Below, one piece after another: positions 60,765-60,900 of a stretch of DNA of 64,000 bases; position 1 is the first letter of the stretch, and every line of letters starts with the position of its first letter. The notes under the pieces are model-generated. The model did not search any database and had not been told where the DNA came from. It was given only the letters and a program-made list of their open reading frames with translations. The stretch lies in assembly GCF_056746865.1 (NCBI RefSeq), contig NZ_CM163382.1; one strand, 5' to 3'. A program made the position numbers and the translations under genes.

Positions 60765-60900
60765 TGGCGGATGCGCACAAACGCCTTATCCGGTCCGCGA
60801 TTTGGTACGGCTTTTTGCCGGATGCGGCGTAAACGCCTTATCCGGCCTACGGTTTGGTGCGAGTGTAGGCCGGATAAGCGCAGCGCATCCGGCATTAATA
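60765..60900. repeat. BIME: tandem cluster of REP elements
   Basis: Three or more REP units (GCCTTATCCGGTCCGCGATTTGGTACGG..., GCCGGATGCGGCGTAAACGCCTTATCCGGCCTACGG..., GTAGGCCGGATAAGCGCAGCGCATCCGGCA) between hpaX and hpaI. Confidence 0.7.

Follow-up and report, generated by a model that had tools for sequence, protein, structure and literature searches.

What kind of element separates hpaI from hpaX in the hpa cluster of Escherichia coli, and does it influence the expression of the genes on its two sides, mark a recombination joint, or simply occupy a tolerant spot? These possibilities were weighed here for a window of 64,000 nucleotides of E. coli DNA, by comparing the hpaI-hpaX junction within E. 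coli and among other genera. REPs in this spacer of E. coli W were presumably already noted in 1996.

Overall organization of the hpaI-hpaX junction

The minus strand of the window carries hpaB, hpaA (58444-59334), hpaX, hpaI and hpaH. All four of the proteins that were tested exceed the NCBIfam equivalog cut-offs, and the annotation of a 100% identical RefSeq record agrees. The hpaGEDFHI meta-cleavage operon ends with hpaI. The TAA stop codon of hpaI (60895-60897) and the start codon of hpaX (60718-60720) define a spacer of 174 bp (60721-60894). The prediction of at least three REP units between the two genes is confirmed, with three palindromes found within 60765-60894 (Table 1). The cluster is thus wholly extragenic, with the hpaI stop (60895) on one side and the hpaX start (60720) on the other.

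Table 1. Features of the hpaI-hpaX junction (window coordinates).
Feature	Position	Strand	Remarks
hpaX (4-hydroxyphenylacetate permease)	59344-60720	-	NCBIfam TIGR02332 equivalog, 889.9 bits (cut-off 615.4); RefSeq annotation
hpaX leader (…TTGTCGTACCCTACAAAAATCCCATTAGAGGAAGAAAA-ATG)	60721-60764	-	Contains the ribosome-binding site; conserved across Enterobacteriaceae, unlike the REP part
REP1	60765-60798	-	Decayed; oriented as REP2; tag GTAG changed to GCGG; direct-repeat family D1; lacking in 2-REP alleles
Linker 1 (GATTTGGTACGGCTTTT)	60799-60815		17 nt; diverged copy of linker 2; D1, 78% identity, 52-nt spacing
REP2	60816-60850	-	Full y-type REP; GTAG tag on minus strand; inverted pair with REP3
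Linker 2 (GGTTTGGTGCGAGT)	60851-60864		14 nt; tail-to-tail spacer between REP2 and REP3
REP3 (GTAGGCCGGATAAGCGCAGCGCATCCGGCA)	60865-60894	+	30-nt REP; GTAG tag on plus strand
hpaI (4-hydroxy-2-oxoheptanedioate aldolase)	60895-61683	-	NCBIfam TIGR02311 equivalog, 433.8 bits (cut-off 368.8); identical RefSeq record annotated hpaI
Right-hand boundary of cassette replacement	60930-60931		36 bp inside the 3' end of hpaI; blastn against strain A10

The three units belong to the dispersed REP family of E. coli. Their identity as REPs follows from the consensus match, the genome-wide dispersion, the stable folds (see below), and the GTAG/CTAC tags on REP2 and REP3. REP2 has no mismatches to the 34-nt y-REP consensus (GCCGGATGCGGCGTNAACGCCTTATCCGGCCTAC). 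When up to three mismatches are allowed, this consensus has two matches in the window, compared to 0.00 expected from shuffled sequences. A query containing REP2, linker 2 and REP3 matched 5425 of 5426 complete E. coli genomes, at a median of 26 places per genome. The tags are located at 60865-60868 in REP3 and, as CTAC, at 60847-60850 in REP2, while REP1 has CCGC/GCGG and lacks this feature. The subtype of REP3, with its short loop, is also found in the yjiX-btsT BIME.

The units had been expected to alternate in orientation, which is not the case. Along the plus strand they read forward, forward and reverse, and only REP3 is inverted. REP1 with linker 1 and REP2 with linker 2 form a 51/52-bp direct repeat (78% identity, family D1), and REP1 is a decayed extra copy of the 51-bp linker+REP unit. 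REP2 and REP3 are arranged tail to tail across the 14-nt linker, with an inverted repeat (I2) in which 14 of 14 positions are complementary, and this pair makes the element a BIME. The order along the hpaI transcript is UAA, one base, REP3, the 14-nt linker, REP2, the 17-nt linker, REP1, the 44-nt leader, and the AUG of hpaX.

Classification of the element

In the published classification, iREPs of types z1 and z2 start with TGCCTGAT and those of type y do not (PMC3333891). BIME-1 combines z1 and y, with a long linker that often contains an IHF site, BIME-2 has alternating y and z2 units, and other combinations are atypical (PMC3333891). All three units of the hpaI-hpaX element bear the CCGGAT/ATCCGG pair and are y-like, and z-type (CCTGAT) units are absent. 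The features of BIME-1 (z1+y, long L linker and IHF site) are not observed, the linkers being 14 and 17 nt and no REP being of the CCTGAT type. The y/z2 alternation in tandem pairs of BIME-2 is not observed either, as REP1 and REP2 are direct repeats. With no z-type unit, no IHF consensus, and a repeated unit that consists of a single REP plus its linker, the element is an atypical, y-only BIME of three y-like REPs.

BIMEs had also been described in the prediction as binding IHF and gyrase, but the IHF consensus (WATCAANNNNTTR) has no match in 60721-60894, and its three matches in the window are all located elsewhere. The IHF-binding BIME-1 type is therefore ruled out for this spacer.

The y-like character of the units bears on a possible role of the element as DNA. 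Gyrase cleavage sites are over-represented in BIME-2 elements, and gyrase favors y-type REPs (PMC6379681). As a gyrase (or IHF) site, the element could insulate convergent supercoiling domains of the hpa cluster from one another. Such a role is improbable, however, given that the y/z2 alternation of the gyrase-tested BIME-2 elements and the IHF consensus are both missing in this spacer, and that all of the hpa genes here are co-directional.

REP sequences are also present elsewhere in the window. On the minus strand at 13728-13761, a perfect y-REP consensus is followed by an exact IHF consensus (AATCAAATTTTTG) at 13761-13773, which is probably a BIME of the BIME-1/RIP type. At 29169-29267, z-type (GCCTGATG) and y-type (CATCCGGC) REP half-motifs are located about 90 bp apart, and may represent a long-linker BIME.

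The hairpins in the hpaI transcript

REP3 is the first hairpin of the hpaI transcript, and its stem begins 1 nt past the stop codon (UAA-U-GCCGG…). The RNA folds of REP3 (-14.7 kcal/mol, z -3.3 relative to shuffles) and REP2 (-20.9 kcal/mol, z -3.4) are both more stable than those of shuffled sequences, and the two units folded together as a single long hairpin reach -49.6 kcal/mol (z -7.9). The fold of REP1 (-11.5 kcal/mol, z -0.47) is no more stable than those of shuffles. Assignment to a known RNA family was considered and rejected, as the search of Rfam gave a sub-threshold match of REP2 to naRNA4 (RF02564; 42.2 bits, gathering threshold 59.5) and one meaningless miRNA match. The partial match of REP2 is explained by naRNA4 itself being derived from REPs.

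No terminator-like site (hairpin plus U-tract) was found on either strand of 60500-61100. The bases that follow the hairpins in the transcript are CUACAC, AAAAAG and AUAAAC. A simple consensus scan of the same region found no sigma-70-like promoter, and an activator-dependent promoter would escape such a scan. The combination of an intrinsic terminator and a separate sigma-70 promoter was rejected as a candidate on the basis of these consensus scans, which found neither. The scans are crude, and the arrangement is kept as an alternative below.

A perfect complement of 13 nt is present between 60849-60861 (within linker 2 plus the two bases preceding it) and the hpaI codons at 60928-60940, which encode (T)RFGA. 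This length was reached in 0 of 5000 shuffles, and in the fold of the full spacer the hpaI codons 60928-60940 pair with a linker. A functional long-range pairing was nevertheless rejected. The complement is only 8-9 nt long in Pseudocitrobacter, in Citrobacter and in a different E. coli lineage. It is also interrupted in several E. coli alleles by a synonymous A-to-G change at 60931 that has no compensation, and the linker motif CCAAACC-GTAGG is similar to the flanks of REPs at other loci. The 13-nt complement is an unexplained detail that is unlikely by chance. In the hpaI tail of Citrobacter sp. R56 (locus L016, about 2229-2288), a 10-nt inverted repeat, CGGTTTGGCG…CGCCAAACCG, involves the same RFG codons.

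A proposed role in the hpaI-hpaX transcript

The known roles of REPs include stabilization of mRNA (PMC12306157; PMC3333891). In PMC12306157, REPs are described as barriers to 3' exonucleases (citing Newbury 1987 and Khemici and Carpousis 2004) and BIMEs as attenuators of transcription (citing Espeli 2001). The same paper reports ribosome stalling and lower translation for a REP located 15 nt or less from a stop codon (citing Liang 2015).

In light of these roles, the element is probably an intercistronic hairpin structure that protects the hpaGEDFHI mRNA and dampens read-through into hpaX-hpaA, perhaps also reducing the translation of HpaI. In this mechanism, hpaX would have no promoter of its own here and would be reached by read-through from the hpaGEDFHI promoter, and the BIME would be transcribed together with hpaI and hpaX. 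The REP hairpins would stop 3'-to-5' exonucleases in the read-through transcript, and a part of the transcription would be attenuated. With the exonucleases blocked by the hairpins, the enzyme-coding upstream mRNA would outlive the hpaX-hpaA part. The logic would be the same as for the malE-malF REPs, with the mRNA for the enzymes held above that for the transporter and regulator. The original prediction had likewise suggested that the BIME could set different levels of upstream and downstream expression. The position of the element fits this suggestion, and constitutes the support for it.

The location of REP3 would have a second consequence. As its stem begins 1 nt past the hpaI stop, terminating ribosomes would have to unwind it, and under the rule formulated by Liang, Rudd and Deutscher it should also lower the translation of HpaI. 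REP2 would then serve as a backup whenever REP3 is melted by ribosomes, with REP1 as a relic.

Whether transcription continues into hpaX is central to this proposal. Alternatively, the BIME could end the hpaGEDFHI transcript, with a promoter for hpaX-hpaA overlapping REP1 and the leader. The E. coli W literature counts the meta operon as hpaGEDFHI and leaves out hpaX, a naming that would agree with a transcript that ends at the BIME, and perhaps with a promoter of hpaX's own, and the attenuation of transcription by BIMEs (Espeli 2001, as cited in PMC12306157) is consistent with such an end. This boundary is nonetheless rather unlikely. None of the hairpins has a U-tract, no sigma-70-like site was found, and REP1 is only 44 nt from the hpaX ATG. 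In other genomes the same leader occurs in spacers of 21-44 nt, which leaves no space for a conserved promoter. Moreover, a constitutive promoter dedicated to hpaA, PA, has been described (PMC4468947), which makes a separate hpaX promoter unneeded for supply of the regulator. In Yersinia, hpaG1G2EDFHIXBC has been reported as one operon (PMC7180172). Read-through into hpaX is favored by the spacing, by the lack of promoter and terminator consensus sequences in the scanned region, and by this single operon of Yersinia.

Variation of the element within E. coli

A query with the flanks of the BIME, omitting the BIME itself, located the junction in 2071 of 5426 genomes, with both flanks in 2021. 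In a sample of 58 evenly spaced full-length matches, the span is the same as in the window (841-842 bp) in 47, and 836, 789-790, 784 or 736 bp in the others. The junction REP1-linker 1-REP2 occurs in 1666 genomes, or 82% of the approximately 2021, and the remainder have two units or one. E. coli W, in which the hpa cluster was characterized, has the same 174-bp spacer with three REPs.

Representatives of the length classes were aligned. They include a 3-REP allele in which the loop of REP2 has been converted to that of REP3, 2-REP alleles in which REP1 and REP2 are joined as exact chimeras, another 2-REP allele that is degenerate, and a 1-hairpin allele (O111:NM) in which the outer arm of REP3 is joined to the outer arm of REP1. 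The hpaX leader shows no change in any of the REP-bearing E. coli alleles that were aligned. The hpaI-tail haplotype of E. coli W is carried by the O111:NM 1-hairpin allele, and the H5 2-REP allele differs from it by one base. As this haplotype is common to the 3-REP spacer of E. coli W, the short alleles are best read as inter-repeat deletions of a 3-REP ancestor. The outer units would thus be lost by deletion between direct repeats, and would be born by unequal recombination or REP-associated amplification. We infer that they carry little or no selective weight.

A different spacer, also of 174 bp, is found in E. coli SCPM-O-B-8794 (locus L023, 2327-2500), where a 52-bp tandem duplication covers the end of the hpaI coding sequence (last codons GTATTAA) together with the stop-adjacent hairpin and linker. 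Since this duplication takes in hpaI codons, duplications here are not confined to REP boundaries. In addition, two matches to the hpaI-hpaX flanks and the REP1-REP2 junction are plasmid-borne, and in one genome the REP1-REP2 junction occurs three times.

The junction in other genera

One genome per species was compared. In most Enterobacterales hpaX is located 3' of hpaI, and the spacer between them varies from about 0 to 415 bp. A leader of about 35 nt before hpaX is conserved within Enterobacteriaceae, and the remaining spacer is not. The leader is kept in Klebsiella, Citrobacter, Salmonella, Kluyvera, Pluralibacter and Enterobacter sp. 10-1. The conservation of the leader, GTACCCTACAAAAATCCCATTAGAGGAA (60721-60764), is an observation in its own right, as it is kept even where the remaining spacer is unrelated and exceeds the need of a ribosome-binding site alone.

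A hairpin located 1 nt past the hpaI stop is found in E. coli, Pseudocitrobacter (two genomes), Citrobacter (three), Pseudenterobacter, Klebsiella spallanzanii, K. grimontii and K. oxytoca, and a related hairpin is located 5 nt past the stop in Salmonella arizonae. For this inner hairpin, 95.7% of the pair cells are standard across nine aligned taxa of five genera, with one compensatory A-U/G-C pair. This single pair may reflect species-specific REP flavors spread by gene conversion, rather than local selection. K. michiganensis, with a spacer of 43 nt, and Enterobacter sp. 10-1, with one of 44 nt, have the same leader and precisely lack the hairpin. In Shimwellia the leader is found 21 nt after hpaI, and the distance is also 21 nt in the alternative E. 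coli cassette described below.

Extra linker+REP units, all opposite in orientation to the first hairpin, number one in K. spallanzanii, two in E. coli, P. faecalis and Citrobacter Awk4, and three in one Pseudocitrobacter MAG and Citrobacter R56. The number of hairpins at this junction therefore ranges from 0 to 4 across strains and genera. The conserved first hairpin, compared to the varying number of outer units, indicates that the inner hairpin either is ancient or moves along with the cluster, and that the outer units are lineage-specific amplifications. The last 25 or so residues of HpaI are also lineage-specific, and most tblastn alignments end at residue 237 of 262.

Identical junctions lacking REPs in close relatives had been named in the original prediction as evidence that would speak against it. 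Such evidence exists in part, as the junctions of K. michiganensis and Enterobacter sp. 10-1 are REP-free, and E. coli has alleles with two hairpins and with one. As a result, three units are not required at this junction.

A neutral, selfish repeat would account equally well for the variation in copy number, for the relatives without REPs, and for the decayed state of REP1. This is the main alternative to the proposed role. The REPs would be located in a tolerant spot, their number would be changed by recombination or by the REP-associated transposase TnpA-REP, and they would have no role specific to hpa. The range of 0 to 4 copies is in line with the variable number of BIMEs per locus that is typical of these elements (PMC3333891). 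REP1 has neither the GTAG tag nor a stable fold, and K. michiganensis and Enterobacter sp. 10-1 keep the same leader with zero REPs. On the other hand, the stop-adjacent hairpin holds its position and its pairing in the nine aligned taxa of five genera, and all three units are kept in 82% of the E. coli genomes with the cassette. A neutral repeat is possible on these grounds, if doubtful, and protection of the hpaGEDFHI mRNA by the intercistronic hairpins is the explanation that we prefer.

The number of same-orientation linker+REP units could also be imagined as an evolvable dial on the transcription and mRNA stability that pass from the enzymes to hpaX-hpaA, with the 13-nt complement burying the stop codon in a long-range RNA fold and the natural alleles being expression variants. 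We regard this idea as highly speculative and very improbable. If it were true, the 3-, 2-, 1- and 0-REP alleles would be functionally different, instead of neutral length variants.

Replacement of the hpaX-hpaA cassette

Approximately 50 of the 2071 hpa-positive E. coli genomes match only the hpaI flank, and one of these, strain A10, was examined. In A10 (locus L012, 18876-22271), hpaI is followed by a REP-free spacer of 21 bp, another hpaX, another hpaA, a gene for an MBL-fold hydrolase, and the usual hpaBC. The HpaX and HpaA proteins of this cassette have 70% and 58% amino-acid identity, respectively, to those of the window. A blastn comparison of the window with A10 gives identities of 98.2% at 52338-58316 and 97.9% at 60931-64000, and 67-69% between these regions. 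The replaced segment, 58317-60930, comprises hpaA, hpaX, the BIME, and the last 36 nt of hpaI. No REP is present at the left-hand boundary (58316/58317), in the hpaA-hpaB spacer. The hpaX of the A10 type is nearer to that of Enterobacter, Lelliottia and Leclercia (77% nucleotide identity) than to that of the window (69%), and in these genera hpaX nearly abuts hpaI.

A REP-like palindrome also borders a variable region at 52295-52327, downstream of yjiA and about 10 bp outside the end of synteny with A10 (52338).

The BIME had been suggested to mark an ancient recombination joint. A real joint does exist nearby, as 58317-60930 is replaced in some 50 genomes (one examined), but the BIME is not its scar. 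That the BIME marks the fusion of an hpaX-hpaA module to the meta operon, as a recombination scar or hot spot, has a low probability. The cassette boundary at 60930/60931 is only 36 bp from REP3, and the alternative hpaX resembles the Enterobacter/Lelliottia/Leclercia type. However, this breakpoint is in the coding sequence of hpaI, outside the BIME, the breakpoint at 58316/58317 has no REP, and the order hpaI-hairpin-hpaX is common to many genera.

A second module boundary at the BIME was also considered, between E. coli and Pseudocitrobacter. The amino-acid identity between the two is 98.9% for HpaI and 91.5% for HpaX, and the nucleotide identity is 93% for hpaH, 90% for hpaI, 87% for the BIME, 83% for hpaX and 82% for hpaA. 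This boundary was rejected, since the identity declines gradually over the junction, with no step. The same gradient is seen with Citrobacter, and there is no clear joint.

Significance of the element

The hpaI-hpaX spacer contains a standard REP/BIME, not a new regulatory device, and the gain is mainly one of annotation. Repeats of this kind are known, the cluster was sequenced long ago, and a role for the element is plausible. Its orientation and type have been corrected here to an atypical, y-only BIME with no IHF site. The natural series of alleles with three, two, one and zero hairpins is usable for gauging the effect of REP number on polar expression in an operon. Three units are present in the window and in E. 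coli W, two in strains P27_L1_05.20 and H5, and one in O111:NM 2010C-3053, while K. michiganensis has the junction with none. For engineering with hpa genes, which includes the HpaBC hydroxylase and HpaX/HpaA biosensors, cloned hpaX fragments may come with or without the hairpins, and a second, divergent hpaX-hpaA cassette is circulating in E. coli.

Comparison with known REP systems

The element differs from naRNA4/REP325 (RF02564) in its locus and in the organization of its repeats. Like BIME-1/RIP elements, it has a y REP within an inverted pair, and unlike them it lacks the L linker, a z1 unit, and an IHF consensus. It also resembles the BIME-2 elements of E. coli, sharing with them the y-type REPs, short linkers, a tail-to-tail inverted pair, and a copy number that varies among strains. 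There are two differences, however. The hpaI-hpaX element has no z-type unit, REP3 having a short loop but the G/C pair of the y type, and the unit that is amplified is a single linker+REP in direct orientation instead of a REP/iREP pair.

With the stop-proximal REPs of Liang, Rudd and Deutscher (2015), for example nrdAB (as described in PMC12306157), the likeness is one of position. The stem of REP3 begins 1 nt past the hpaI TAA, within the 15 nt of the stop that define the class.

A parallel in arrangement is also seen with the malE-malF REPs of malEFG. The hpaI-hpaX element differs in having three units, one of them decayed, and in that the first unit abuts the stop codon, and its function would be assigned by analogy. 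In both systems, the hairpins are located between an upstream gene that is needed more and a downstream gene for a membrane transporter on the same strand. In both, the U-tract is missing, and the expected effect would be to shield the upstream mRNA from 3' exonucleases.
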